Part shown: piece by piece, positions 20,147-50,746 of the stretch
How positions within the stretch are numbered: position 1 is the stretch's first letter
Layout: every line of letters starts with the position of its first letter
From: an uncultured Candidatus Saccharibacteria bacterium
GTDB taxonomy: Bacteria > Patescibacteriota > Minisyncoccia > Spechtbacterales > 2-12-FULL-38-22
DNA: 64,000 bases
Direction of reading: 5' to 3'
Assembly (NCBI GenBank): GCA_964393575.1
Contig: CAYMUG010000002.1
Location: 341-64,340 of the forward strand
The notes under the pieces: model-generated
Databases searched by the model: none
Told to the model about the DNA's origin: nothing
The model's input: the letters and a program-made list of their open reading frames with translations, nothing else
Made by a program: the position numbers and the translations under genes

Positions 20147-20175
20147 TTGACATTATTAATCGTAGGGTATATAAT
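20147..20175 (+). promoter_or_regulatory. sigma70 consensus promoter TTGACA-17-TATAAT upstream of the adhesin gene
   Basis: TTGACA 20147-52 and TATAAT 20170-75. Confidence 0.55.
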
Positions 20176-20229: not shown

Positions 20230-22617
20230 ATGTTTAATATGTTTAATAAGAATCGCAACCAAGTTTCAAATAGTGTTTTTTCTATTCCTTCTTCGGGATA
20301 TGAGGAAAAACGCGCACAAGGAATTAGAAAATTAAAAAACATTCCGGCAAAATCTTACCTAGCATTCGCTTTCAGTATTTTGTTTGTAGGAATTTCATTT
20401 ATGCCCGCGGTAAGCGGACTTACTGTATTTGCTGAAAATACACATACAATATCCGGAACTGTCTTTGAAAAGACGGATTCAGGTGACTTAGAAGGACTTG
20501 AGGATTGGACCGTAAAACTAATAGGTTATAACGAGGTGCGTGAAGCTGTGACCGGAAGTAATGGCGGTTATAGTTTTGCAGGTCTAACAGAGGGGGATTA
20601 TAAGGTTTGCCAAGTAAGAAAAATGGGTTGGCAAAAGATTGACTTTGATTCAACCGCTCCGGACCTCGGAAATTGTCATAATGTTACTATACACAGCAAA
20701 AACAAAACTGATGCTAACTTCTTTAATGAGTCCACCGATGCTGATAGTTTTAGTAACGCCCGCTTAACGGTAATAACTCATGTTGTTAATGATAGCGGAG
20801 GACAGAATGAGGCCTCTGATTTTACTACACAAATCGTGGGTAATCCCGGAACAAACAAAGCTATTGACGGTGCATCTGTGCCCGGCACAGAAATTACTGT
20901 TGAACCGGGGGAATACCACATAGATTCAACCTCAAATAATAATTACACCAAATTTTTGTTTGGCTGCTCCGAGAGAGAGCTCGGAGAAGGTGAGCACGGA
21001 ATGTGTGTTATCATTCAAAACGACATAGATACTGTATGTCCTCTGGAAAACAAGGAGAATAGAACCATAATTGGGTTTCCCGAAAGTTGGCATTTTAGTC
21101 ACCTTAATGCACGACATCCTGAAAATAATTCCAGAGGCCCGCTTGACCTTTTCAATCGACCTGAAAATGGTCTGTATGATGTAACAATGGTTTCCTTTGA
21201 CAACCACGATGAGAAGTCCGGACAACACCAACCTGAAGAACAATGGTTTTTCAAGGCATTTGATAAAAATGGAAATTCTGTGTTTACCTCTGATTCAATA
21301 GATGATCTTCCTGAAAACCAAAATCGGCTTACACAACAGGTCCACACTGATGTAGAGATTACCTCTGAAGTTCATTCTGTTTCTGTGCATCATAAACTTC
21401 CCGTTGATTCCGGCAATAATATAAACAGCATCAGTCCGCTTTGTATTGCCTTTGATAAAACAGATAGTACAGAGGAAGAACCTGAGGAAGAACCTGAGGA
21501 AGATGCCCACCTTACTCTTCACAAAACGGTAGTAAATGATGATGAAGGAGAAGCTACAGCGGATGACTTCCAATTATTTATTGACGGTGATTCCGCAGAC
21601 AGTGGCGAAGCGGTGGAGCTTGAGCCCGGAACATACACCGCAAGCGAAAACAGTGTAGAAGGTTACGCAGCTTCAGGCTGGACAGGAGATTGTTCTACAA
21701 ACGGAACGGTTACTCTCTCTGAGGGTGAGAATGCTCACTGTAGCATAACGAATAACGATATTCCCTCTGACAGCCCTCCCGCTGTAACCGGCTCTCCTAA
21801 CCTCACCCTTAATAAGAATGTTGTGCCGACAAGTACCAGCGCAGGAGAGGAAATTGAATTTACTATAACGATTGAAAATGAAGGTAACTCTGAAGCCGAG
21901 AACGCGATTCTTGAAGACACACTTCCGGAAGGGTTTACATTTCAGGAAACAGGGAGTGATTCAAGAGAATGGACACTCGGAGATATAGCTGCCGGCGGAG
22001 GTACGCGCGTAATTAACGCCGATGTCAGGATTGCAGAAGATGTAAATGCGGGGAATTACACTAACAATGCCAGTGTTGATGCTGATAATCATGCTGCGAT
22101 TGAAGATACAGCAGAAGTTAGTGTTACCTCTTCTTCCGAAGGAGAAGTTTTAGGTGAAGAGGCATCTCCTGTATTGGAAATCGTAAAAAGCGCGAACAAA
22201 GATTTTGTTAATCCCGGAGGCACCATTACGTTTACCGTGGCTGTTACAAACAGCGGTGAAGCTCCGGCCGAAAATCTGGTAGCAGGGGACACTCTTCCCG
22301 ACGGATTCCGTGATGCGAACGGAAATAAAGTTATAACTTTTGAAAAAGACCGACTTGATCCCGGAGAAACTTTCCAAGAGTCGTTTGTGGTAAGTGTGTC
22401 CGCAGACGCTGAAGCGGGTGAACAAACCAATGAAGCTTCCGCAGAAGCGGATAACCACGACACGGTTAAAACCACCGAAGATATTACCGTAAGGAAAGGA
22501 GCTGTGTTGGGCAAAACAGGAGTTTCTCCTATTGCTCTTACTTTATGGGTTGCAGCTTCTCTCTCATTAGTGTTCGGTGTATTTCAGGTACGAAGAACTC
22601 TTGCATCTGTAGCGTAA
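20230..22617 (+). CDS. large cell-surface adhesin-like protein (Cna-B/SdrD-like domain, paired-Cys beta-sandwich repeats, DUF11-like repeats) with a C-terminal sorting signal LGKTG-TM-RRT
   Basis: The N-terminus is signal/TM-like. ISGTVFEKTDSGDLEGLEDWTVKL matches Cna-B. LTLNKNVVPTSTSAGEEIEFTITIENEG matches DUF11. The tail reads VLGKTGVSPIALTLWVAASLSLVFGVFQVRRT. Confidence 0.75.
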   Translation: MFNMFNKNRNQVSNSVFSIPSSGYEEKRAQGIRKLKNIPAKSYLAFAFSILFVGISFMPAVSGLTVFAENTHTISGTVFEKTDSGDLEGLEDWTVKLIGYNEVREAVTGSNGGYSFAGLTEGDYKVCQVRKMGWQKIDFDSTAPDLGNCHNVTIHSKNKTDANFFNESTDADSFSNARLTVITHVVNDSGGQNEASDFTTQIVGNPGTNKAIDGASVPGTEITVEPGEYHIDSTSNNNYTKFLFGCSERELGEGEHGMCVIIQNDIDTVCPLENKENRTIIGFPESWHFSHLNARHPENNSRGPLDLFNRPENGLYDVTMVSFDNHDEKSGQHQPEEQWFFKAFDKNGNSVFTSDSIDDLPENQNRLTQQVHTDVEITSEVHSVSVHHKLPVDSGNNINSISPLCIAFDKTDSTEEEPEEEPEEDAHLTLHKTVVNDDEGEATADDFQLFIDGDSADSGEAVELEPGTYTASENSVEGYAASGWTGDCSTNGTVTLSEGENAHCSITNNDIPSDSPPAVTGSPNLTLNKNVVPTSTSAGEEIEFTITIENEGNSEAENAILEDTLPEGFTFQETGSDSREWTLGDIAAGGGTRVINADVRIAEDVNAGNYTNNASVDADNHAAIEDTAEVSVTSSSEGEVLGEEASPVLEIVKSANKDFVNPGGTITFTVAVTNSGEAPAENLVAGDTLPDGFRDANGNKVITFEKDRLDPGETFQESFVVSVSADAEAGEQTNEASAEADNHDTVKTTEDITVRKGAVLGKTGVSPIALTLWVAASLSLVFGVFQVRRTLASVA

Positions 22618-22679
22618 AATAACTTCTCACTTTAGTTCAGGAGCAGGAAAAATTGATTCTACTCTCCTGAATTTTCCCT

Positions 22680-23432
22680 ATGGACTTAATACCGATTGAC
22701 TTCGCTCCTTCTTATGAGGCGGGGTTGGATACAAAAAAGATTTTATATCTAAAATCACACAGATATAAACCCAACAAAAAACGGGTGAAGCTTTCGGTGT
22801 GGCTAGGAGTTATTTTGGTTACATTAAGCGCCGCTGCTTATCCGGTTATGCCTATGGTTATGTACAAAATTAACCCGCCTGAAGTTTCAGAAACAGAAAC
22901 TTTGCCCGCCACATACACAGCAAATGACGGAGAAAATAGTGTAAACACGAGTAGGGCAGAGGAGACCGGCAGCAGTAACCGCACACCCGAAAGTCGTAAT
23001 ACTGCCTCTGCCGCAACCACTCAAGAGAGAACCAATCGTCTTGTAATTCCTAAAATAGATGTAGATATAGAAATTATAGGGGGCAATAATGCCGAATATG
23101 CATGGAGCAAAGGAGCATGGCATCAACCGGGAACTTCTTCTCCGGACAATGGCGGTAATATGGCGTTAAGTGCTCACAGGTTTCGTTATCAACCCCCTCA
23201 CACAGAAACTTTTTATCTCTTGGATAAACTGGAGACAGGCGACCACTTTTTCATTTATTGGGAAGGAAAAGTTTATAAATATAAGGTTAAAAAAGAAGAG
23301 GTGGTAAGCCCTTACGCAACTGAAATTCTTGAACCCACAGAAGAACCTGTTGCAACCCTTTATACGTGCGCCCCTCTTTTTTCCACTGAAAACCGCCTGT
23401 ACGTACGGGGAGAGTTGATGAGTATTAATTAA
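22680..23432 (+). CDS. sortase family transpeptidase
   Basis: N-terminal TM. The His motif GNMALSAHR, the catalytic TLYTCAP (TLxTC) and a downstream Arg (RLYVRGEL) are present. Confidence 0.8.
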   Translation: MDLIPIDFAPSYEAGLDTKKILYLKSHRYKPNKKRVKLSVWLGVILVTLSAAAYPVMPMVMYKINPPEVSETETLPATYTANDGENSVNTSRAEETGSSNRTPESRNTASAATTQERTNRLVIPKIDVDIEIIGGNNAEYAWSKGAWHQPGTSSPDNGGNMALSAHRFRYQPPHTETFYLLDKLETGDHFFIYWEGKVYKYKVKKEEVVSPYATEILEPTEEPVATLYTCAPLFSTENRLYVRGELMSIN

Positions 23433-23463
23433 ATCCGCGACTTTTGTAATACATTTAGTACTC

Positions 23464-23500
23464 AAAAACTCGGTTCAATCTATAGGTTGAGCCGAGTTTT
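23464..23500. terminator. terminator hairpin actcggttcaatc-tata-ggttgagccgagt (paralog of 1047-1084)
   Basis: The stem is nearly identical to the copy at 1053-1081. Confidence 0.6.
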
Positions 23501-23587
23501 GTGTTTATATATAACACTCATATAAAACTATGGCTGATGCAATTAAATATGTAGACACAGGAAAAAATTTGTGTTATTATAAATACA

Positions 23588-24601
23588 ATGAAGGGGTTTA
23601 AAAAATTTTTAAGTAAAGCGTTTATACCGGGGGCGGAAAATAATTTTACACCTTCCGCGTTTAGTATAAACGCTTTTATTGTTTACGGGATTCTTGTAAT
23701 GCTGACTATGGGTGTTTTGACGCAGGGTTTATTTATAGATTCTTTTTTAGCTAATATTACGCGCAACCTTGTCGTCCAAGAAGTTAATCCCGTAAGAAAT
23801 AATTTAGACCTCCCGGAACTACAGGAAAACCCCGCTCTTTCCAGGGCGGCACAAATGAAAGCTGAAGATATGATACGCCGCGATTACTTTTCGCACACAG
23901 GTCCGGCAGGGGAGGAGCCCTGGGTGTGGTATGAGAAAACCGGTTATGATTTTTCTTTAGCGGGGGAAAATTTAGCTATAGATTTCAATGACCCCTCTCT
24001 TTTAATGGATGCATGGCTTGATTCACCGAGCCACGCGCGTAATATTTTAAACAGTTATTTTGAAGATATAGGTATAGGGGTAGCAAGAGGGGAGTTCAGG
24101 GGTAGAAACACAACGGTGGTTGTGATGTTCTTAGGTAAAGAAGTAGGCAGCACCCGAACCGCCTCTGCCGAAGAGGAAACCGCACCCGAAGAAAATAGTC
24201 CTCCTGAAAATAACGAGGATATAGCGGGTGAAACCTCTAACGAAGAGCCTCAACAAAGTGAAACCGAAGTGACCCCTGTCACAAAAGACCCGCAAATTGT
24301 GCCGGCTGAAGAGTTGGTTATAGCCAAAAAAGCGGATTCCAAAGTATTACAGACCGGCAAAGAAACCTTAGTAGGAGAGGAAGTACAAAAATTACAAAAG
24401 CGCCTGGAGAATCCCGAAAAAAGTGCTAAAAATGAAATAATATCCGGAACCCCGGAAACAGTTAGAGCAATCTTCTCCGTTTTCTTTACAGGGCTGTTTT
24501 TCTGGTTGATTGCTGCCGCATTTATATACAAAACAAGCACATACTTTTACTTACCCCGCATTCTTCTTTTAGCTGCTATGACAATTGTTTTGTGGATATA
24601 A
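23588..24601 (+). CDS. CAP/SCP/PR-1 domain protein with N- and C-terminal TM segments
   Basis: The CAP core is present (FSHTGP...GENLA...DAWLDSPSHARNIL...IGIGVA). Confidence 0.75.
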   Translation: MKGFKKFLSKAFIPGAENNFTPSAFSINAFIVYGILVMLTMGVLTQGLFIDSFLANITRNLVVQEVNPVRNNLDLPELQENPALSRAAQMKAEDMIRRDYFSHTGPAGEEPWVWYEKTGYDFSLAGENLAIDFNDPSLLMDAWLDSPSHARNILNSYFEDIGIGVARGEFRGRNTTVVVMFLGKEVGSTRTASAEEETAPEENSPPENNEDIAGETSNEEPQQSETEVTPVTKDPQIVPAEELVIAKKADSKVLQTGKETLVGEEVQKLQKRLENPEKSAKNEIISGTPETVRAIFSVFFTGLFFWLIAAAFIYKTSTYFYLPRILLLAAMTIVLWI

Positions 24602-24627
24602 ATATGACAAATTTTTAATATAATTTT

Positions 24628-24656
24628 AAACCCGCGCTGTTTCGCGCGGGTTTTTT
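24628..24656. terminator. terminator hairpin aaacccgcgc-tgtttc-gcgcgggttt + T6
   Basis: A near-identical copy at 25094-25121 points to local duplication. Confidence 0.6.
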
Positions 24657-25005
24657 AGGAACCTTTATATTTACCTCTTAATTTGTTTATAATTTTTCTT
24701 AGTTTTTCTGTTGTTTTGTAATATAGTTCTTTTATGGCTTGTGCTATAATCACACACAGCCCACCGAGAATAACCGCAACCAGTCCGGCAGCAAACAAAA
24801 TGCCTGAGGTATTATAGCTTATCTCCTCGCCATTGATAAGCGTAATCACGCCTGCAACTAACACGCTAAGTAAAGTATCATCGCTTATCTCTACCCCCAA
24901 GAATAGCATGGATAAATAAGTTAACTCTTTCCATACCTCAAAAAATAACAGTATATAAATCAGAAGAAGTACCACAATTATTAATCTGCACATCCACCGA
25001 ACCAT
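24655..25005 (-). CDS. small membrane protein, divergent member of the tandem two-TM paralog array
   Basis: Hydrophobic helices and a C-terminal IxELYxK-like motif are shared with the neighbours. Confidence 0.5.
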   Translation of the reverse strand: MVRWMCRLIIVVLLLIYILLFFEVWKELTYLSMLFLGVEISDDTLLSVLVAGVITLINGEEISYNTSGILFAAGLVAVILGGLCVIIAQAIKELYYKTTEKLRKIINKLRGKYKGS

Positions 25006-25093
25006 CCAACCTCCTTTTGTAGAAGAACTAATTATATGATATCAACTATATTGTCACTTTGCCATACAGACAGACCACCTTTTAAAAAATTTT

Positions 25094-25121
25094 AAACCCG
25101 CACTGTTTCGCGCGGGTTTTT
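25094..25121. terminator. duplicate of the aaacccgcrc-tgtttc-gcgcgggttt hairpin
   Basis: It differs from 24628-24653 at one position. Confidence 0.55.
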
Positions 25122-25149
25122 AAGAGCGTTTAGTTTATTTATTAGTTTT

Positions 25150-25416
25150 TCAGCGTTCCAGTTTCTCTCTTATTTTGCTGTATATTGTTTTTGCCGTAAA
25201 CGCTATGCCTGCAATCATCGCAAACAGCATAACAGCGGCAGTAAAAGCCATTACTATTGCTACAGTGACACTCATAGCATCATGTACTTCTGTGGGTCTA
25301 TAATATACGAAAATGTAACTCAGCGCTCCCCAGGTGCCGAGAAATAACATTATAAAGAACAAGGTGAATCCGGTGGCTATGAGGGCGCTGCCTATCGATT
25401 CATACGTTTTACGCAT
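25150..25416 (-). CDS. small two-TM membrane protein (paralog array member C)
   Basis: The motifs LGTWGALSYI and MIAGIAFTAKTIYSKI are shared with 25409..25921. Confidence 0.55.
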   Translation of the reverse strand: MRKTYESIGSALIATGFTLFFIMLFLGTWGALSYIFVYYRPTEVHDAMSVTVAIVMAFTAAVMLFAMIAGIAFTAKTIYSKIREKLER

Positions 25417-25921
25417 CTAATCTCCTCTCTATCGTGTTATAGATTGCTTTTGCTACTGCTACTATAATTACAAACAGCACAATAGTCGTAAAACCAGTTA
25501 CACCTATGGCTAACATTATACCTGAAAAACCACCACTTATATCTATACCCAAGGATAAGAAGTAACCCCAGACGCTGAAAAACAATATTATGGGAATCAA
25601 AGTCAATACAGCAGCTATCACTCTGCGCATTCGATAGGGCATCCAAACATTAAGTTCCGGCACTCTTCTAATTTCTTCCATGATAAAGCTATATATTACC
25701 TCTGCCGTGAACGCAATACCCGCAATTAACCCAATCAGCACAGCAATAGCAGCCAACCCCATTCCTATTGAGAAGATTACCCCCACAGCATCATATACCT
25801 CTACGGGTCCGTGCGATGCAAGAATATAAGTCAGCGCTCCCCATAGGCCGAGGAGTAAAAATACGATGAGCGCAGTGAGTGCCGTAGCTGTCAGCTTGCG
25901 CTTGAGTATACCCACATACAT
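25409..25921 (-). CDS. membrane protein made of two tandem copies of the two-TM module
   Basis: Internal repeat: LGLWGALTYI...LIAGIAFTAEVIYSFI, then SVWGYFLSL...VAVAKAIYNTIERR. Confidence 0.55.
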   Translation of the reverse strand: MYVGILKRKLTATALTALIVFLLLGLWGALTYILASHGPVEVYDAVGVIFSIGMGLAAIAVLIGLIAGIAFTAEVIYSFIMEEIRRVPELNVWMPYRMRRVIAAVLTLIPIILFFSVWGYFLSLGIDISGGFSGIMLAIGVTGFTTIVLFVIIVAVAKAIYNTIERRLDA

Positions 25922-25954
25922 CTACATTCTCCTTTTTGTTGAAGAACGTGTTTC

Positions 25955-26191
25955 TTACTCCCCGAAATAAATTGCCTCATAGAGTTCTTTTGTTAATCTT
26001 GCTGCAACATAAACCAAAAGAGACAACATAATAGTGACAATCAAACTCAATACAATCGCAACGAAAATGACCGCGAAAGTATACGCTTCTCCTTCGAAAT
26101 ACATGTAAATGTTATAAGCGAGTACTCCCCAGATACCCAAAAATGACAGTGCAGACATAAGGGCGAGTGCAGCGGATACCTTTTTGCGCAT
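25955..26191 (-). CDS. small two-TM membrane protein (paralog array member A, first gene of the operon)
   Basis: The motif LGIWGVLAYNIY is present. AAGGAG lies 6 nt upstream. Confidence 0.55.
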   Translation of the reverse strand: MRKKVSAALALMSALSFLGIWGVLAYNIYMYFEGEAYTFAVIFVAIVLSLIVTIMLSLLVYVAARLTKELYEAIYFGE

Positions 26192-26227
26192 CCCGTCTCC
26201 TTTTCTGTTGGCAAACTAACTGGAATG

Positions 26228-26256
26228 ATTATAATCACTTTCAAGTGTACTGTCAA
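26228..26256 (-). promoter_or_regulatory. perfect sigma70 consensus promoter TTGACA-17-TATAAT driving the small-membrane-protein array
   Basis: On the minus strand: TTGACA (26256-26251)-17 nt-TATAAT (26233-26228). Confidence 0.6.
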
Positions 26257-26259
26257 ATT

Positions 26260-27210
26260 TTATTCTTCTCCGTTTTCACCGTGGAGTTTTTTGTGTATTT
26301 CTTTCAGGCGCTTGTTGGTTACGTGGGTGTAAACCTGGGTTGTAGCTATATTTTTATGACCCAAAAATTCCTGTACTGTTCGCAGGTCAGCCCCTTTAGA
26401 GAGTAGGTCGGTGGCAAATGTGTGGCGCAGAACATGCGGGGTAACATTAACCGGCAGAGCTGCCATTTTAGCGTAACGATTAATCGCGTTTTGTATGTAA
26501 CGCGGAGACAGGCGCTTGTCTTTGTTTTTAGAGCGATAGTTTATAAATAGCGGTTTTTCCATATCCGTGCGGGTGTTGTCATATTCTTTCATCCATTTTA
26601 AAGCTCTGGGTGAAAAGAACACCGTACGGGGTCTCTCGCCCTTGCCGGTTATATTAAGCTCCAGTGTATTTTCAACCTGCCTCAAGTTAATTTGTTCCCG
26701 GTCCAAATTCACAAGTTCCGCAATACGCATTCCCGTAGAAAACAACACTTCCATAATAGCACGATCCCGCAGGCCTGCGCGTGTATTGGTGTCCGGCATT
26801 GAAAGAAGCTTTTCTACTTGCTCCCCGGTTAAAAATTTAACGGAATCTTTGTCCGTTCCCTTGGGCAGCTTTATTTTAGTTGAGGGGAGGGAGTTTATAT
26901 CACGGTCGGCAAAATAATCCAAAAGGGCTCTTAGCGATACAAGATAGTAATTCTGTGTTTTTCGGGAGAGATTTTGATTGTCCCGTGTTTTATATTTGCG
27001 CGCAAGGAACAACCTATAATTCCATACCTCCTCTGCCGTTAGCTGGTGGGGGAGTAAATCTTCTTTTTTCTCGTCCCGCAGCCATTTTTTAAAAGTTTCC
27101 AGGTATCTTTGATAGTTTTCCTGGGTTTTATTACTCAAACCTTTTTCTATTTCACAGTAATCCAGAAAATCAGGTATATGTTGCATAATTGTTTTTTTTG
27201 ATTTTTGCAT
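26260..27210 (-). CDS. tyrosine recombinase, XerC/XerD family
   Basis: An N-terminal core-binding region is present, together with R...HVLRHTFAT...LGHKNIATTQVYTHV catalytic motifs. The start is taken at MQKSKK. Confidence 0.8.
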   Translation of the reverse strand: MQKSKKTIMQHIPDFLDYCEIEKGLSNKTQENYQRYLETFKKWLRDEKKEDLLPHQLTAEEVWNYRLFLARKYKTRDNQNLSRKTQNYYLVSLRALLDYFADRDINSLPSTKIKLPKGTDKDSVKFLTGEQVEKLLSMPDTNTRAGLRDRAIMEVLFSTGMRIAELVNLDREQINLRQVENTLELNITGKGERPRTVFFSPRALKWMKEYDNTRTDMEKPLFINYRSKNKDKRLSPRYIQNAINRYAKMAALPVNVTPHVLRHTFATDLLSKGADLRTVQEFLGHKNIATTQVYTHVTNKRLKEIHKKLHGENGEE

Positions 27211-27355
27211 AAGGGGAGTAGAAGAATTAGTTATATGAATAGGTTCGCACAATATAGGTAAAGCGAATTATGTACTTCTTTTTATTATATATACACACTT
27301 TTTTATAGTCAAACCCTATTTATCCTTAAATATATTTATAGATAATATAATAATT

Positions 27356-27499
27356 CGCTTTACCTATGCGCAGGTTTTGCGCAACTTTCCTATTAAAGGT
27401 TCGCAAGAATCTGCGCTTCGTTATTCATTCTGTGCCTATTCTATTAACATTTTTAAAGAAACGCTTTACCTGACGCAAATTGCGCAATTTTCCTATTTA
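27356..27499. repeat. two ~40-bp direct repeats (cgctttacct..gcgca..ttgcgcaaYtttcctatt), each containing the palindrome TTGCGCAA, upstream of the recombinase gene
   Basis: Copies at 27356-27395 and 27462-27499. Confidence 0.55.
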
Positions 27500-27541
27500 T
27501 TACGGGGTATGTATCCTATATTTGCCATTTTAAGCGTCTTT

Positions 27542-27865
27542 TTAGCCGTCTTCGCCCCATAGGCGCTCCCAGGCATTAACTAAGTCATGAAAGGCATTAT
27601 ATCGCGCCTCCAGGGTGTTTTTTACTGCTTCAACCTTATGGATGGCCTGCAGGTACTTGTTTTTGGCGAAATTTGTAGTTTTGTGAAATATATCTTTACC
27701 AAATTGAAAAATATATGAAAACTTTTGACGTGTCCAGTTTTTAAATTTGTTTATCTTTAACAAGCCAACTTTATCGGTTACATTTTCAGTTGTTTTGCCG
27801 GGCAAAACTAAAAATATAATCAACGCAATCAGAGCCAATGCAATAATTTTATTTAAAATAGCCAT
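27542..27865 (-). CDS. small membrane-anchored hypothetical protein
   Basis: ORF with an N-terminal TM segment. Confidence 0.4.
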   Translation of the reverse strand: MAILNKIIALALIALIIFLVLPGKTTENVTDKVGLLKINKFKNWTRQKFSYIFQFGKDIFHKTTNFAKNKYLQAIHKVEAVKNTLEARYNAFHDLVNAWERLWGEDG

Positions 27866-27950
27866 TACCTACCCTATTAAATTTAAACCTTGACAAATTA
27901 TAAATTATGTTATTTTGTAAAAACACCCCGTTTCTTTTTTACATTATAAC

Positions 27951-27980
27951 AAAAAACCGGCGCAATATGCGCGGTTTTTT
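27951..27980 (-). terminator. terminator hairpin aaccggcgcaatatgcgcggtt flanked by A/T runs
   Basis: It lies downstream of the M23 peptidase gene. Confidence 0.55.
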
Positions 27981-28066
27981 GTATTTTTAAGTATTATATT
28001 TGAATTTAGAATTTCGGGTTTGTTTGCGTCCTTGGGGTTACCGATTACCGATTACTTGTTTCTTAC

Positions 28067-29365
28067 TTAAGGAAGATAATTACCCGGATTAAGTGTTGCA
28101 CCTATGGGCAAAATTCCTTCAATACTACTCTGTTGAGTCCTGAAAGTATCTGCGGCGTATACCATAAAATGCAGGTGTGGGCCGGTACTCAATCCGCTGC
28201 TCCCCATATAACCTACAACATCCCCTTCTTCAACCTGTTCTCCGCGGCCTGTTACGGCTATATCCGCCATATGAGTATATGCAGTAATCAACCCGTTAGG
28301 ATGTTCTATGGCTACCCAATTTCCGTAAGCATAGGGCGCCTCCCCTGTTGCCTTCACAACTCCACTATCTGCAGCACGCAAGGCGGTTCCATAGGGAGCT
28401 CCCATATCAATACCATTATGAAATCCTCCCGCGCCATCGTTGCATGAAGGATAGTATTTTCGCGCAAAAGAGCTTGTGTTACATCCGTATCCTTGAGTTA
28501 GATACCACTGATTCTCTATAGGCCATTTCAGAAGTCCAGGTCTTGCTTCAGGTATTGCGCTGGGATCAAGTGCAAATCTGAGTTGTTGCTCTAACTCAAA
28601 GATCTCCTGGCGTATTTGTTTTTGTTTCCTCTGAGCTTCTGTTAGAAGTTCTTTATATTCGGATGCTTCTCTTCTGGTTTGTGCCAATAAACTTCTATGC
28701 GAAAGACGCCGCCTCTCCAAAACAATTTTTTGATTCCGAAGTGTGTTCTGCTCTTCTTCAAGTTGTGCTTGTTCTTTTTCCAATCGCTTTTTAGCTTGCT
28801 CAAGTTCGACCTTAAGCTTTTTGAGATTGAGGAGTTCTTTATGAACCGTTTCCTGAATGTTCTTGCTTGCCTGTACTTGGTTGAAGAAATTTGAAAAATC
28901 CTCATACTTAAATACGAGTTCAATCACGCTCTGGTCATCTGTGCGGTAAATTTGTTGTAATAGAGTTTCTATCTGAAGCTTCTTTTTTTCAACTTCTTTA
29001 GTTTTTTCTTCTATTTTTAAATTTACTTTTCTTATAGCCAATCGTGTTGATTGCATTTTCTCCTTTTTTACAGCTATTTGTGACTCCATCACTGCAACAT
29101 CCTGATTAAACTGTTCCACTTTTTCTTCCAATGAGCTGGCGCGATGACGGGTTTGATTATAATTTTCTCTTTGCTTTTTAGCTTCTTTTTTCAACTGTTC
29201 AAGGCGTTCTTCCTGTTGTTTTATTTTTTCCTCAAGATCATCAACGGTGTTTGTCTCTTTATGTTCACTCGCTGAAACCAACCCTCCGAATATCAGAAAG
29301 ATGGTTGCGGCCATAGCCGATAATGCTAACGTGAATGTTTTATTTTTTGTGATTAATTTAGTCAT
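28067..29365 (-). CDS. M23/LytM-family peptidase with an N-terminal coiled coil (EnvC-like murein hydrolase activator)
   Basis: A long coiled coil is followed by HNGIDMGAPYGT...HLHFMVY. Confidence 0.85.
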   Translation of the reverse strand: MTKLITKNKTFTLALSAMAATIFLIFGGLVSASEHKETNTVDDLEEKIKQQEERLEQLKKEAKKQRENYNQTRHRASSLEEKVEQFNQDVAVMESQIAVKKEKMQSTRLAIRKVNLKIEEKTKEVEKKKLQIETLLQQIYRTDDQSVIELVFKYEDFSNFFNQVQASKNIQETVHKELLNLKKLKVELEQAKKRLEKEQAQLEEEQNTLRNQKIVLERRRLSHRSLLAQTRREASEYKELLTEAQRKQKQIRQEIFELEQQLRFALDPSAIPEARPGLLKWPIENQWYLTQGYGCNTSSFARKYYPSCNDGAGGFHNGIDMGAPYGTALRAADSGVVKATGEAPYAYGNWVAIEHPNGLITAYTHMADIAVTGRGEQVEEGDVVGYMGSSGLSTGPHLHFMVYAADTFRTQQSSIEGILPIGATLNPGNYLP

Positions 29366-46780: not shown

Positions 46781-46808
46781 TTGACATTGTATATATATAG
46801 GGTATAAT
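46781..46808 (+). promoter_or_regulatory. sigma70-like promoter TTGACA-16-TATAAT
   Basis: TTGACA 46781-86 and TATAAT 46803-08. Confidence 0.5.
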
Positions 46809-47385: not shown

Positions 47386-47414
47386 TTGACAAATTATTTT
47401 TAATATATTATAAT
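47386..47414 (+). promoter_or_regulatory. perfect sigma70 promoter TTGACA-17-TATAAT upstream of GC-rich island 2
   Basis: TTGACA 47386-91 and TATAAT 47409-14. Confidence 0.55.
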
Positions 47415-47456: not shown

Positions 47457-48416
47457 TTGCCTAAAGTTCCCGCTCCCGTTGTTGTGGCGATCGTTATTTC
47501 AATTCTCGCGCTATGCGGTGCGGGATTTGTTGTTTTTAAGAAGAACGCTGAAGCCGAACAAGCTCGACTTCAGAATCAGCTTGAGCATTCGCAATCTCGA
47601 GCTGATACTTTGAAAAGCACTGTTGACGATATCTCCCCAAAGGTGAAGTCACTAAAAACCCGCGCCGAAGAGGCCGAAGAGTTAGAAAAAGAGAACTCCC
47701 GACTAAGGAAGGAGCTTAACAAAGAGAGAACAACCACGGAAACAACACAAACCAGAACGGAAGAAGAAGAGGAGAAGGAAGAGGAAGAGGTTTCTGAAAC
47801 ACCTTCCTCTTCATCGCCCAACCCCTCGCCTACACCGGAACCCAATCGGGTTCGCGGTCATGGCGAAAAGATGGTTTTGACGTTTGATGATGGAGGTGCG
47901 CCAAATAAAGTCACGGCCATTCTGAACATTCTGAACAATAAAAATGTTCAAGCTGTGATGTTCCTGAACGGAAGATGGGCACACGCCCATCCCGACTTAG
48001 TTCGCCGTATGCGAGCCGAGGGACATATCGTAGCAAACCATACTTGGTCTCACGCGAAGCTCACCGAACTTCCCGATGAGGAAGTTCGGAGGGAAATCCG
48101 GCGTGGCGCGCAGGAAGGTTCGGATCTGTTCCGCCCTCCGTACGGAGCCATTGATGCCCGTGTTCGCGGCATTGTGCAAAGCATGGGTCTTCGGACTATG
48201 CTCTGGGACATTGACACCCGCGACTGGGACAACACCTCGGCAGACGAGATTACCCGGATCACACTGAATAACGCCCGGCCGGGAGCTGTAGTGCTTCTGC
48301 ATCTCCACGGAGAACATACCGCAGAAGCGTTGCCGCGCATGATCGACGGTCTGCGCAATCAGGGCTATACATTTGGCCTTCCCGCCCCCGAGAAGGAGGA
48401 AAGTAATGCTACGTAA
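47457..48416 (+). CDS. polysaccharide deacetylase (CE4/NodB) with N-terminal TM, coiled coil and an acidic/Pro-rich linker
   Basis: The NodB motifs TFDDG, HTWSH and RPPYG are present. The gene is GC-rich. Confidence 0.8.
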   Translation: MPKVPAPVVVAIVISILALCGAGFVVFKKNAEAEQARLQNQLEHSQSRADTLKSTVDDISPKVKSLKTRAEEAEELEKENSRLRKELNKERTTTETTQTRTEEEEEKEEEEVSETPSSSSPNPSPTPEPNRVRGHGEKMVLTFDDGGAPNKVTAILNILNNKNVQAVMFLNGRWAHAHPDLVRRMRAEGHIVANHTWSHAKLTELPDEEVRREIRRGAQEGSDLFRPPYGAIDARVRGIVQSMGLRTMLWDIDTRDWDNTSADEITRITLNNARPGAVVLLHLHGEHTAEALPRMIDGLRNQGYTFGLPAPEKEESNAT

Positions 48417-48696
48417 AAAGTTGGTAGCTGCCATACTGATGGCCGTACTCGCAACAGCGAGTGCTGCCTCAGCAGCCCATGAGGTAATTGAGGCAAGCGA
48501 CCTCCGGGAAGAGAATACTCAACTTCAGGATGAAGTTGAATCACTTTCCGAGGAGCGTGAAACCCTTGAACGCTTCGCTCGGCTCCAAGAAAAACACGAA
48601 GAGCTGAGCGGGAAAGCGAAGAAAACCGACCAGAAAGTGCGAGATCTGAAAGAGAAAAAAACAGGGCTTACGCGAGCATTGGAGGAGCACCGATGA
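48406..48696 (+). CDS. small membrane-anchored coiled-coil protein
   Basis: ORF with a TM segment and heptad repeats. GC-rich. Confidence 0.45.
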   Translation: MLRKKLVAAILMAVLATASAASAAHEVIEASDLREENTQLQDEVESLSEERETLERFARLQEKHEELSGKAKKTDQKVRDLKEKKTGLTRALEEHR

Positions 48697-49442
48697 GAAA
48701 CGAATTTTTCGCTAGAGTCAATTTCTTCGTTGGCTTTACTGCAATCACGGCGATCATTGTCGCCGTTAGTGCCGCTTTGCTCCTCGTCACGAACGTCGAG
48801 GAGCCCCAACAGGCCAATGCTCAGCTAAAAGAGCAGAAGGCCGAGCTCTCTAGCAGCGTCAGCGAGATGCGCGAAAAGCATAAGGTGAGCGGGAAGCCTT
48901 CCCTCTCTCCTCAGGTTTCTGAACTCGAGGAGGGGGTTCAGAGACTTCGCTCGGAGGTCGGTACTCTTTCGGGGAAAAAGAAAAACCTCGAAAAAGAGGT
49001 TGCCGGACTTCGTGAGAATGTGCGCGAAGCCCGGGAAGCCCGGGAAGCCAGAGAAGCCGAAGAGAGGCAATCCCAATCCCGCCAGAGTCAGAGCGCTCAT
49101 AGCGGTCGCACTCCGGCAAGTGCGCGGGCACTCGGCCGCCAGATGGCCGCCCAACGAGGTTGGGCAGGCCGTCAGTGGCCATGCCTGAATGAGCTCTGGA
49201 GACGGGAAAGTGGATGGCGCTATAACATCCAAAACCATACCCACCGGCGCCAAGGTCGAGCTATAGAAAACTCGGCCTACGGAATCCCGCAGGCGTTACC
49301 TGGCAGGAAAATGGCCAGCCACGGCGGCGACTGGCGCACCAACCCACGTACACAGATAGCGTGGGGGTTGGACTACATCGCCGACCGTTATGGAACGCCG
49401 TGCAACGCACTGGCATTCCATAACCGAAAAAACTGGTACTGA
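48693..49442 (+). CDS. membrane-anchored coiled-coil protein with a C-terminal lysozyme-like (SLT/GH23-like) transglycosylase domain
   Basis: C-terminal W.CL..LW.RESGW...N......SAYGIPQA...WGLDYI..RYG.PC resembles actinobacterial SLT-type domains. Encodes REAREAREA in its coiled-coil region. GC-rich. Confidence 0.5.
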   Translation: MRNEFFARVNFFVGFTAITAIIVAVSAALLLVTNVEEPQQANAQLKEQKAELSSSVSEMREKHKVSGKPSLSPQVSELEEGVQRLRSEVGTLSGKKKNLEKEVAGLRENVREAREAREAREAEERQSQSRQSQSAHSGRTPASARALGRQMAAQRGWAGRQWPCLNELWRRESGWRYNIQNHTHRRQGRAIENSAYGIPQALPGRKMASHGGDWRTNPRTQIAWGLDYIADRYGTPCNALAFHNRKNWY

Positions 49443-49452
49443 CGCTCCAGAA

Positions 49453-49549
49453 GAGAGGGGGAGTCGGTACTCAGGTGAGTACCGACTCCCCCTCTCGACC
49501 TGTTCTTTAGTAAAAAGGTCCCCGCAAGTTATATACTGCGGGGTTTTTT
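49453..49549 (+). terminator. strong 19-bp-stem GC hairpin (49453-49494) followed by the terminator ccccgc-aagttatatact-gcgggg + T6
   Basis: Read directly. Confidence 0.6.
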
Positions 49550-49666
49550 ATTTTGTAATAGTCATCGTCATAGTGATTTTATGTCAGTGTCAGTGTTGGT
49601 GCCTGCCATCTGCCATTGGTCATAATGGTTTTACGTCATCGTCATAGTCACAGTCATAGTGGTTTC

Positions 49667-50746
49667 TCACATCCCTCTCTTCCAGATCCTGTACTTGTCT
49701 ACCGCCCAACTCAACCAATATTTATAATTTAATTTATAATCCCGCGCGTGAAGGTAGTCAGTTCTAAACCCGCCGAATCCTTTTTTGAACAAAGTAAGAC
49801 CGTACCAGGGATGGCTTTTATTTTCCTCGTCTTTTGCAATACCCCAAAAGTTATAATATTGTTTACCTTTATTTTTAGCGTCCGTAATCGCACTCCACTG
49901 CACAAGGTGTGAGGCGGGAATTTTTTTATATTTTTCGTTTGTTGTATTCGCGCCATGGTGGTAATAAGCGCTGTGCCCGTAAAAAACAATAATAGCAGAT
50001 GCAACGGGGGTATCATTGTAATAACCTATATAAATCCCTATACCCTCTTCACCGAAATGATTGATTTGCGCTCTTATAAACTTTTCCGAAAATGGCGTAA
50101 ACCCGTGTTTATGCGCGGTTTCGTTGTATAATTTTAGAAAATCTTTAATCAAATCATCTGAAGTACCGCTTTTTACTTCCACCCCCTCTTTTTTAGCGCG
50201 TCTTACAAGGTTTCGCGTATTCTTGCGCATTTCCGCCATAAGTCCGTCTTCGGACTTAGATAAATCTATTGTCCAGGTAGTTTCAGCATGCATATAAATG
50301 GGTGCTGAACGATATCCCAATTCTTCAAATATCTCTCTGTTTTCTTCCGTATCTTTCAATAAAGGGCTTACTCTTATAAAACTTGTGTTTTCAGATTTTC
50401 CTAATTGTATAAAATAATCCGTAACTGTTTTTAGAATTTGAAATTTGTAATTTGAAATTTGTTTGTTACTTGTTATTTGGGATTTGAAATTTCCGTGTTC
50501 GCTTTGGGCGAACACGGGCCCGTGTGGAACAAATAAAAAATTACCGCGCCGCGCGTGCACTTTTACAACCATAGCAGCCGCTATAAGTTCTTCGTTTTTG
50601 TAAATACCTAAACGCCACACCTTATCCCCTAACCCGTGATTTAACTCTCCCCACGCCCACGAGTGTAGAAAAGAATGTTGCGTGCAGGATGTAATAAAAC
50701 CATCCCATCGTTCTTTATTTTCTATTTCTTTTATCTCCAAATCCAT
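49667..50746 (-). CDS. FemAB-family peptidoglycan interpeptide-bridge aminoacyltransferase
   Basis: FemABX fold signatures are present (SFLHSWAWGEL, FLFVPHGPV, a C-terminal GNAT-like half). Confidence 0.75.
   Translation of the reverse strand: MDLEIKEIENKERWDGFITSCTQHSFLHSWAWGELNHGLGDKVWRLGIYKNEELIAAAMVVKVHARRGNFLFVPHGPVFAQSEHGNFKSQITSNKQISNYKFQILKTVTDYFIQLGKSENTSFIRVSPLLKDTEENREIFEELGYRSAPIYMHAETTWTIDLSKSEDGLMAEMRKNTRNLVRRAKKEGVEVKSGTSDDLIKDFLKLYNETAHKHGFTPFSEKFIRAQINHFGEEGIGIYIGYYNDTPVASAIIVFYGHSAYYHHGANTTNEKYKKIPASHLVQWSAITDAKNKGKQYYNFWGIAKDEENKSHPWYGLTLFKKGFGGFRTDYLHARDYKLNYKYWLSWAVDKYRIWKRGM

Follow-up and report, generated by a model that had tools for sequence, protein, structure and literature searches.

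A lineage-specific array of predicted two-helix mini-protein genes beside a Xer-type recombinase gene in Spechtbacterales

The window analysed here is a 64,000-nucleotide (nt) stretch of contig CAYMUG010000002.1 from an uncultured Candidatus Saccharibacteria bacterium placed in the GTDB lineage Spechtbacterales; on its minus strand, from 26256 to 24628, an array of four small genes stands directly behind the gene of a Xer-type tyrosine recombinase (xer). The question raised by this locus is whether the array is cargo of the recombinase or a gene family that grew where it stands, and what its products might do in the membrane. The account preferred here, with moderate confidence, is that the array encodes orphan two-helix mini-proteins with both termini in the cytoplasm (N-in/C-in) and a putative membrane role, that it grew in place, and that its link to Xer is one of position. 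The expansion is genuine, though of a rather common, lineage-specific sort.

Composition, growth and expression of the array

Gene 1 (25955-26191) encodes a 78-amino-acid (aa) protein with a single two-helix module; gene 2 (25409-25921) encodes 170 aa in which two modules are fused, gene 3 (25150-25416) a single module of 88 aa, and gene 4 (24655-25005) a 116-aa protein with the most divergent module, all four lying on the minus strand. The array therefore holds five paralogous modules, as an earlier note on this DNA had described, and the reading of the 170-aa gene as an internal duplication also holds: module a (170a) spans 25643-25921 and module b 25412-25642, and the initiator methionine of module b is kept at residue 94. 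When the 170-aa product is divided at this internal Met94 and the resulting five segments are aligned, a module of about 84 columns emerges in which W, L and Y are invariant; the motif IAGIAFTA is exact in modules 170a and 88. All ten module pairs score above 500 composition-preserving shuffles in local alignment, with z from 3.3 to 27.6 (for the weakest pair the observed score is reached by at most 6 of the 500 shuffles), and the paralogy is therefore real and no by-product of hydrophobic composition. The closest paralogs are 170a and the 88-aa module, with 48% aa identity.

The product of gene 1 has a basic N-terminus, a first transmembrane helix (TM1) with GIWGVLAY, a short acidic loop, TM2 and a C-terminal LYEAI. 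Hydropathy and AlphaFold2 are concordant in giving one helical hairpin per module; the model of the 88-aa protein, with a predicted local distance difference test (pLDDT) score of 74, is a hairpin of helix 2-38, loop and helix 48-87, and the model of the 170-aa protein, also at pLDDT 74, has four long helices at residues 2-37, 40-86, 96-127 and 133-169. Basic residues mark the N-termini and the C-terminal tails, whereas the inter-helix loops, of 7-10 residues in four of the five modules, are acidic; from this pattern an N-in/C-in topology is predicted by the positive-inside rule. The 116-aa protein carries a loop insertion of about 30 aa, acidic and partly hydrophobic, which amends the earlier description of its module, and ends in a very basic C-terminal tail. 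Conserved features of the family are interfacial aromatic residues (W/Y), a small-residue helix face (AGIAxxA) and an amphipathic charged cytoplasmic helix (IYxxIxExL).

Public gene calls for the array appear to be incomplete. The exact 78-aa product is not in a collection of 15 billion proteins, and a Logan contig is the sole source of the 88-aa product; the locus is contained in the Logan assembly of run SRR9010616. For the last gene NCBI gives a product of 84 aa from Met33, though a strong Shine-Dalgarno (SD) sequence precedes the upstream ATG.

Growth of the array by tandem duplication can be read from the DNA. Positions 25688-25858 match 25177-25347 with 70% nt identity over 171 nt, the stretch shared by 170a and the 88-aa gene; 25080-25191 match 24613-24733 with 75% identity over 121 nt, and this match covers the 3' coding end as well as the terminator. 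Genes 1, 2 and 4 have related ribosome-binding regions with the common sequence GTTCTTCxACAAAAGGAG. Because the DNA matches span terminators and coding ends and the ribosome-binding regions are related, the duplicated unit is the ribosome-binding site (RBS) region, the open reading frame (ORF) and the terminator, which bears out the earlier idea of a small membrane-protein family expanded by duplication of whole units. Between gene 1 and gene 4 the promoter regions show no significant likeness, which gives no support for a duplication of the promoter itself.

Module pairs share 25-48% protein identity, with Nei-Gojobori synonymous divergence (dS) of 0.8-2.0 and a ratio of nonsynonymous to synonymous divergence (dN/dS) of 0.31-0.78 in all ten pairs. 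These values indicate old duplicates under moderate purifying selection, with neither diversifying selection nor an ongoing burst; the family can thus not be called rapidly expanding, as it had been, and of the claim drawn from the two terminator hairpins at 24628 and 25094 the inclusion of flanking DNA in the duplication stands while its recent date does not. The GC content of the array, and that at third codon positions (GC3), equal those of neighbouring genes, so that composition gives no hint of a recent import. Membrane receptors under diversifying selection had also been proposed, and the reading weighed here takes in surface receptors and host-interaction factors. Patescibacteria commonly live as episymbionts and have numerous envelope proteins peculiar to their lineages, and the neighbourhood does encode a sortase, a SpaA-like surface protein and a CAP-domain protein; however, the predicted outside loops have 7-10 residues in four of the five modules, no dN/dS value reaches 1, conservation is best in the intramembrane and cytoplasmic parts, and relatives with sortase and CAP genes are without the array, which together make the receptor proposal highly improbable.

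The leader of gene 4 contains a 21-nt segment, TCATATAATTAGTTCTTCTAC (25019-25039, minus strand), that matches the xer leader at 27218-27238 in 19 of 21 positions (TCATATAAyTArTTCTTCTAC), a score reached by 0 of 40 shuffles; the 3' part of the segment, GTTCTTCxACAAAAGGAG, is common to the leader of gene 2. In the five Spechtbacterales relatives whose sequences were read, the xer leaders show no such segment. The likeness suggests that the array and the region upstream of xer have exchanged sequence locally.

Expression of the array would start at an exact TTGACA-17-TATAAT promoter (12/12; 26228-26256, minus strand) that was found by sequence match and begins 3 nt past the xer stop codon; its -10 box ends 36 nt ahead of the ATG of the 78-aa gene, so that the earlier promoter claim is right as to the consensus and the strong SD, and the distance is 36 rather than 35 nt. 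A sequence scan finds five exact TTGACA-N16-18-TATAAT sites in the window versus 0.02 expected, at 963-991, 20147-20175, 26228-26256, 46781-46808 and 47386-47414, and the array promoter is therefore non-random, yet not unique to the array locus. From these five sites the organism appears to use consensus sigma-70-type promoters, of which the array would have one of the strongest. All four genes have an AAGGAG, GAGGAG or AAGGAGG box 5-8 nt ahead of the ATG (AAGGAG in gene 1, AAGGAGG in gene 4), and an 8-nt overlap of the gene 2 stop with the gene 3 start points to translational coupling of the two. The -10 box of the array is palindromic (GATTATAATC), and a TTGGCA-16-TATAAT sequence (11/12) lies on the plus strand at 26208-26235, aimed antisense into the xer 3' end; a bidirectional promoter region is possible.

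The layout is promoter, 78-, 170- and 88-aa genes and terminator, then the 116-aa gene with a terminator copy; upstream of the 116-aa gene only weak promoter-like sequences are found. The first hairpin, T1 (25094-25119), has a 10-bp GC-rich stem with a folding energy of -17.7 kcal/mol (z -4.2), and the second, T2 (24628-24653; -19.6 kcal/mol, z -5.6), is a copy of T1 in 25 of 26 nt. Since each has an A-run before the stem and a T-run after it (T2 is trailed by T6 on the plus strand), both could operate in either direction. T1 is predicted to close the 78-170-88 transcription unit; T2 separates the 116-aa gene from the CAP-domain gene that converges on it (stop at 24601), and probably acts as terminator for the two. 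Rfam models searched against 23400-28200 give only sub-threshold matches, which fall on the terminator hairpins.

The recombinase, the variable slot and the dif-like element

The recombinase gene occupies 26260-27210 on the minus strand and encodes 316 aa from the ATG at 27210, a start that agrees with those of relatives; in the list of ORFs the frame extends to a TTG at 27252. Its identity as a Xer-like tyrosine recombinase, already recognised in the earlier note, is supported by domain matches (Phage_integrase E=1.8e-41, Phage_int_SAM_1 E=2.2e-9) and by the best NCBIfam models, XerC (7.9e-72; 242 bits over residues 14-311, equivalog cut-off 335) and XerD (1.3e-68, 231 bits), both scores being under the equivalog cut-offs. 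The XerS model gives 120 bits and the integron-integrase model TIGR02249 gives 111.5 bits versus a cut-off of 265; the XerC and XerD scores are far above those of integron-integrase and invertase models. Among the 8000 candidates scored, 7593 proteins match at E<=1e-60, and the best 120 listed are 56-70% identical; orthologs number in the thousands in Patescibacteria, the nearest apart from the protein itself being 67-70% identical and from Spechtbacterales bins, and identity to the Xer of loci with examined synteny is 54-70%. The protein is accordingly best regarded, by these matches, as a conserved housekeeping chromosomal Xer that would act as chromosome-dimer resolvase. Its putative promoter, TTGACT-17-TATAAT (11/12), lies at 27284-27312 on the minus strand, and the related loci L002 and L028 have a promoter at the equivalent position.

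The xer gene ends a block of the order FtsW-MurG-GltX-M23-105aa-Xer that is also found in loci L026 and L029; L028 keeps the part from MurG to Xer and L002, the closest species representative, the part from M23 to Xer. The slot after xer has different content in every genome examined. In L002 it holds a convergent CAP-domain gene and a sortase gene, with 53 bp between the two stop codons; in L026 an M10 peptidase is followed by GT2 and GH113, in L027 there are two unknown genes, and in L029 Asd and MurC. In L028 (5953-9117) the slot is filled by genes for a soluble 170-aa protein of unknown kind, another tyrosine recombinase, NYN, DUF6998 and DpnI, which shows that the slot can take up mobile or defence-type DNA. 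In the window xer is followed by the array, CAP, sortase, a SpaA-like surface protein, GT2 and GH113, then CTP synthase and L9. No relative has the array in this slot, and because slot content varies while relatives are without it, the array is a lineage-specific filling of about 1.65 kb in a variable slot.

Upstream of xer lies a short element that resembles a dif site. Its conserved 23-nt core, TTCGCACAATATAGGTAAAGCGA (27244-27266, extended 27239-27271), is designated R3; its place is within the leader of xer, 34 nt ahead of the ATG. The core is present with 0-1 mismatch in five Spechtbacterales loci (L002 1460-1482, L026 4934-4956, L027 141-163, L028 4952-4974 and L029 4936-4958), in which the flanks, read by eye, are unrelated, and with 2-7 mismatches in 11 more Parcubacteria loci; 16 of 20 related loci show it, or 17 of 21 when the window is counted, at 11-177 nt from the xer start and in both orientations relative to xer. 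A position weight matrix (PWM) scan finds it as a single copy in the window, scoring 42.7 versus 13.1 for the next best site. Written as dif, the core consensus is GATTCGCACAA-TATAGG-TAAAGCGAAGT, in which the arms show a 6/11 inverted match (counted by eye). This is the same degree of match as in E. coli dif.

By definition, a dif site has a spacer of about 6 bp flanked by two arms, each of about 11 bp, that form an imperfect inverted pair (PMC2958812). Precedents for its position exist: difSL lies directly upstream of xerS (PMC1914069), and in the Sulfolobales dif is close to xerA, and S. solfataricus has a further dif copy there that is less well conserved (PMC2958812). The window resembles the XerS/difSL and Sulfolobales xerA-dif systems in that the probable site is directly upstream of the recombinase coding sequence, takes the form of an imperfect 11-6-11 inverted repeat, coincides with a skew switch, and is accompanied by an additional degenerate copy as in S. 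solfataricus; unlike XerS/difSL, the recombinase is XerC/XerD-like and scores only the 120 bits given above on the XerS model, the site has a different sequence, and here it is predicted. Because it is conserved, single-copy in the window and orientation-independent, has dif-like arms and follows the precedent of a site upstream of the recombinase gene, the 23-nt element is probably the dif site of this lineage. The core, in exact and degenerate form, is absent from the viral contigs scanned, and of 376 literature matches on dif and Xer the 12 ranked best make no mention of Patescibacteria.

Two degenerate copies of the element lie farther upstream on the minus strand. R2 (27350-27394), found by alignment, is inverted relative to R3 and has an insertion of about 8 nt (TTGCGCAAAACCTGCGCA); R1 (27462-27497) is in direct orientation with R2 at a distance of 103 nt, and each contains TTGCGCAA. 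These are the two direct repeats that the earlier note had placed in the 5' region of the recombinase gene; they are present, but a third, inverted copy at 27239-27271 had been missed, and the repeats are best read as degenerate inverted dif-like copies not tied to the array. R1 and R2 align with inverted R3 through a common AATAGG...TTGCGCAA...AGGTAAAGCG, with 5-8 additional bases in the middle, and the last 18 nt of R2 (27350-27367) are a perfect inverted repeat of 27254-27271 in R3. R2 and R3 flank the xer promoter on both sides. L026 and L027 have similar inverted partial copies by the core, with spacers of about 19-23 nt (own count), and these copies form long palindromes capable of folding into hairpins. 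Inverted repeats of the R2/R3 type could serve in autoregulation or accessory binding, or form a cruciform or single-stranded DNA structure; R1 and R2 are favoured as accessory binding sites or decayed duplicates. An arrangement of R2 and R3 as an invertible xer promoter was considered and rejected as the main reading, since the spacing of about 19-23 nt between their equivalents in L026 and L027 is too short for inversion.

These elements bear directly on whether the array could be a set of cassettes or an islet that goes with the recombinase, in the manner of an integron, an rAID cluster or a mobile element that makes use of Xer to integrate (IMEX), in which Xer would capture or shuffle small genes through the hairpins or the TTGCGCAA repeats. 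Several features point that way: a tyrosine recombinase stands directly upstream on the same strand, the array promoter follows its stop codon almost immediately, a hairpin is repeated behind gene units, three related repeats lie upstream of the recombinase gene, and in L028 NYN and DpnI genes occupy this slot along with another recombinase. However, the recombinase is orthologous to and syntenic with the Xer of many Patescibacteria that have no array, it scores 242 bits on XerC versus 111 on integron integrase (cut-off 265), the hairpins are ordinary terminators of GC stem and T-run, and the array has the composition of its host. The dif-like element is single-copy with none at the array borders: the PWM scan over 24400-26400 gives a best score of 5.0, inside a coding region, so that no dif-like site is found at either border, and R1, R2 and R3 are all on the side of xer away from the array. 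The modules, moreover, are mutual paralogs and not unrelated cassettes. A cassette array or islet is therefore very unlikely, and the earlier suggestion of recombinase-associated cargo is not supported, the recombinase being a conserved chromosomal Xer and the array having no flanking dif-like copies.

Comparison with each known system leads the same way. As in an integron, a tyrosine recombinase lies by a strong promoter and a row of small promoterless genes has hairpin repeats after gene units; unlike an integron, in which each cassette has an attC site, the array has only two hairpins, after genes 3 and 4, formed by 26-nt GC stems with T-runs, its would-be cassettes are mutual paralogs, and the recombinase falls far under the integron-integrase cut-off and is co-directional with the array. 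Unlike an IMEX, the array has no flanking dif or dif-like sites in direct orientation. By this comparison of sites, since no dif-like site borders the array, the locus appears to carry no signature of IMEX integration, integron cassettes or a recombinase-associated islet.

The slot after xer is a probable replication terminus, because both gene orientation and GC skew converge on it. In the window, genes left of 24.6 kb are mostly rightward and genes right of it leftward, and the GC skew turns from plus to minus near 24.6 kb; the same switch from plus to minus is found at xer in 10 of the 11 relatives with enough flank.

A set of surface genes stands beside the array at 20230-24601, comprising a SpaA_2/DUF11/CARDB-repeat protein, a sortase and a CAP protein. 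The repeat protein has 795 aa and ends in a hydrophobic anchor preceded by LGKTG; one of the exact consensus promoters lies about 55 nt upstream of its gene. The CAP (SCP/PR-1) domain protein has a two-helix C-terminal anchor, and a CAP and sortase pair also follows xer in L002. Derivation of the module from this two-TM anchor was considered and rejected, as the CAP ORF is not matched even at E<=10. Elsewhere, the window has two GC-rich spikes, at 1-2000 (0.47) and 48001-50000 (0.525) versus about 0.39 in the remainder, and ARAGORN finds no tRNA gene over the whole 64 kb.

Relatives, possible functions and meaning

By the searches made, the module family appears to be an orphan, lineage-restricted one, without a relative in about 15 billion public proteins. 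A word-index search over 5.8 billion clusters brought back nothing except the query, and a hidden Markov model (HMM) of the five modules, run against all 1.84 billion representative proteins, gave three matches, every one from the array locus; the array protein clusters are singletons from the source genome and its sequencing run. In 29 related loci no module was detectable by hmmsearch --max or by blastn with the array, so that the array is absent from every related locus rather than conserved there in single copy. The best Pfam-A match is XK-related, at 15.3 bits versus a cut-off of 24.8, with all others at E>=0.03, and all NCBIfam matches are at E>=0.048, far under cut-offs; a match to a housekeeping family was found in none of the databases searched. 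A PDB sequence profile search gives a best E of 9.1, and Foldseek with the 170-aa model finds nothing at E<=0.001 in PDB or BFVD.

The matches that come nearest are to pore-forming proteins, and they raise the possibility that the modules are effectors of the class II holin-like kind or of the two-TM abortive-infection or toxin type (PycTM, CBASS 2TM, SLATT), possibly as a remnant of a mobile element or phage. The sub-threshold matches are to PHROGs holin profiles phrog_1350 (E=0.068) and phrog_4712 (E=0.087), one helix each, to the PADLOC models PycTM (E=6e-4, 17.7 bits, the 78-aa protein only) and 2TM effector (E=0.028), and to SLATT models (E 0.7-0.9 for the array proteins). However, segment-preserving shuffles of the 78-aa protein also match PycTM (E=0.034, 12 bits) and a SLATT model (E=0.067), so that the PycTM and similar matches appear mostly to reflect topology and composition; the proposed search for an HMM relationship to holin or immunity families thus yields only sub-threshold matches that are probably driven by these two properties. 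PycTM, in addition, is matched by a single module. Phage records searched by tblastn give no match, viral contigs scanned with the 88-aa protein hold no relative, and no match is found among viral structures.

In size, two helices, N-in/C-in topology and charged C-terminus the modules do resemble class II holins. The likeness to class II (two-TMD) holins of the pinholin type extends to a length of about 70-90 residues, a short outer loop, the cytoplasmic location of the charged C-terminus and a tendency to oligomerise through small-residue faces, features that are generic and do not discriminate. Unlike class II holins, the modules have no significant sequence or fold match, and the array is without linked endolysin or phage genes, has a consensus promoter of constitutive type, and consists of four co-oriented paralogs, including a fused dimer, in a chromosomal cell-division neighbourhood. 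Its neighbours are conserved chromosomal genes, among them those for Xer, the CAP-domain protein, the sortase and an M23 peptidase (the last kept in relatives without the array); no linked endolysin, cyclase, sensor or phage gene is present, and no nucleotide cyclase, SMODS or SLOG sensor gene lies within 10 kb on either side of the array. An exact consensus promoter with strong SDs would also be hazardous for a lytic protein. Pore-forming effectors are for these reasons quite unlikely.

A second comparison is with arrays of orphan immunity genes, in which small membrane proteins that give immunity to bacteriocins or contact-dependent toxins are encoded in tandem; recombinase-associated rAID clusters of such genes were reportedly described by Ross et al. 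in 2019. The array is like these in its tandem small paralogs, predicted strong expression, lineage-specific content and adjoining tyrosine recombinase with no cognate toxin nearby. Unlike them, it shows no homology to immunity families, its recombinase is a housekeeping Xer and not element-specific, there are no inter-cassette recombination repeats, and the genes are all paralogs of a single module. For the mini-proteins a protective or accessory role in the membrane, of the orphan-immunity type, is tentatively preferred, at less than even odds. A lytic holin or pore, or an abortive-infection effector, is less likely than this and improbable in itself, because of the strong, unregulated-looking promoter, the want of a lysin, sensor or toxin partner, and the chromosomal setting.

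In the preferred account the array grew in place through old tandem duplications of whole units and one gene fusion, with the copies since retained under moderate purifying selection. It fills the sole variable slot closing the otherwise conserved FtsW-MurG-GltX-M23-105aa-Xer block, about 1-2.6 kb from the dif-like site upstream of xer and at the probable terminus; the proximity of array and Xer would be positional and not mechanistic, since Xer is a housekeeping protein and no copy of its site flanks the array. The mini-proteins are predicted to be produced constitutively and at high level and to insert as helical hairpins with 7-10 residues exposed outside. Modules may pair or oligomerise through the interfacial W/Y residues and the small-residue (AGIAxxA) faces, and the natural head-to-tail fusion of two modules suggests that they work in pairs; they are predicted to act inside the membrane or by means of the conserved, charged C-terminal helix on the cytoplasmic side (IYxxIxExL).

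Some points weigh against this account. The 21-nt leader segment shared with xer, a hint of some exchange of sequence with the xer region, is left unexplained by it. The nearest sampled relatives are distant, with Xer 67-70% identical, and the absence of homologs could in part be due to short hydrophobic proteins diverging fast and not to true restriction. The consensus promoter could be under the control of a repressor, in which case expression would not be constitutive. The terminus call carries the caveat that it is based on a 64-kb window and on flanks of 5 kb on either side in relatives, and that skew is confounded with gene strand.

The shared leader also bears on the view that the array consists of proto-genes, young and poorly constrained, which were born or diverged in the intergenic zone of the terminus, were locally duplicated, are expressed through a strong promoter that is there by chance, and have little or no adaptive function. 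Such an origin would fit the absence of homologs from the databases searched, the 53-bp intergenic spacer at the equivalent site in L002, the fairly high dN/dS of up to 0.78, and the leader partly common with that of xer, which suggests local raw material; hydrophobic helices are, in addition, readily generated from T-rich sequence. However, dN/dS is below 1 in all ten pairs despite near-saturated dS, the topology and the motifs W, Y, AGIAFTA and IYxxIxE are conserved, intact strong SDs precede all four genes, and the coupling by 8-nt overlap together with the kept two-module fusion indicates long-term maintenance. Unconstrained proto-genes are therefore unlikely. Gene birth followed by selection is a similarly low-probability account: the module would have arisen de novo, or diverged beyond recognition, in the terminus spacer by xer and dif, taken a local leader and the resident bidirectional terminator, been amplified four- to five-fold and been fixed by selection.

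If gene birth of this kind were true, the dif-proximal terminus zone of Patescibacteria would be a nursery for new envelope genes. As preferred here, in-place growth of an orphan family, the array adds one more family of orphan small membrane proteins to a phylum already rich in them. Its value is that of a clean, datable case of a reduced genome gaining envelope genes, and it is informative in that the insertion point is bounded by conserved synteny, the paralogs stand side by side and the duplication unit of RBS, ORF and terminator is visible. The dif-like element is perhaps more useful than the array: it offers a testable candidate for the site of chromosome-dimer resolution, and would be a practical terminus marker for Parcubacteria-type genomes, which are mostly available as fragmented metagenome bins.

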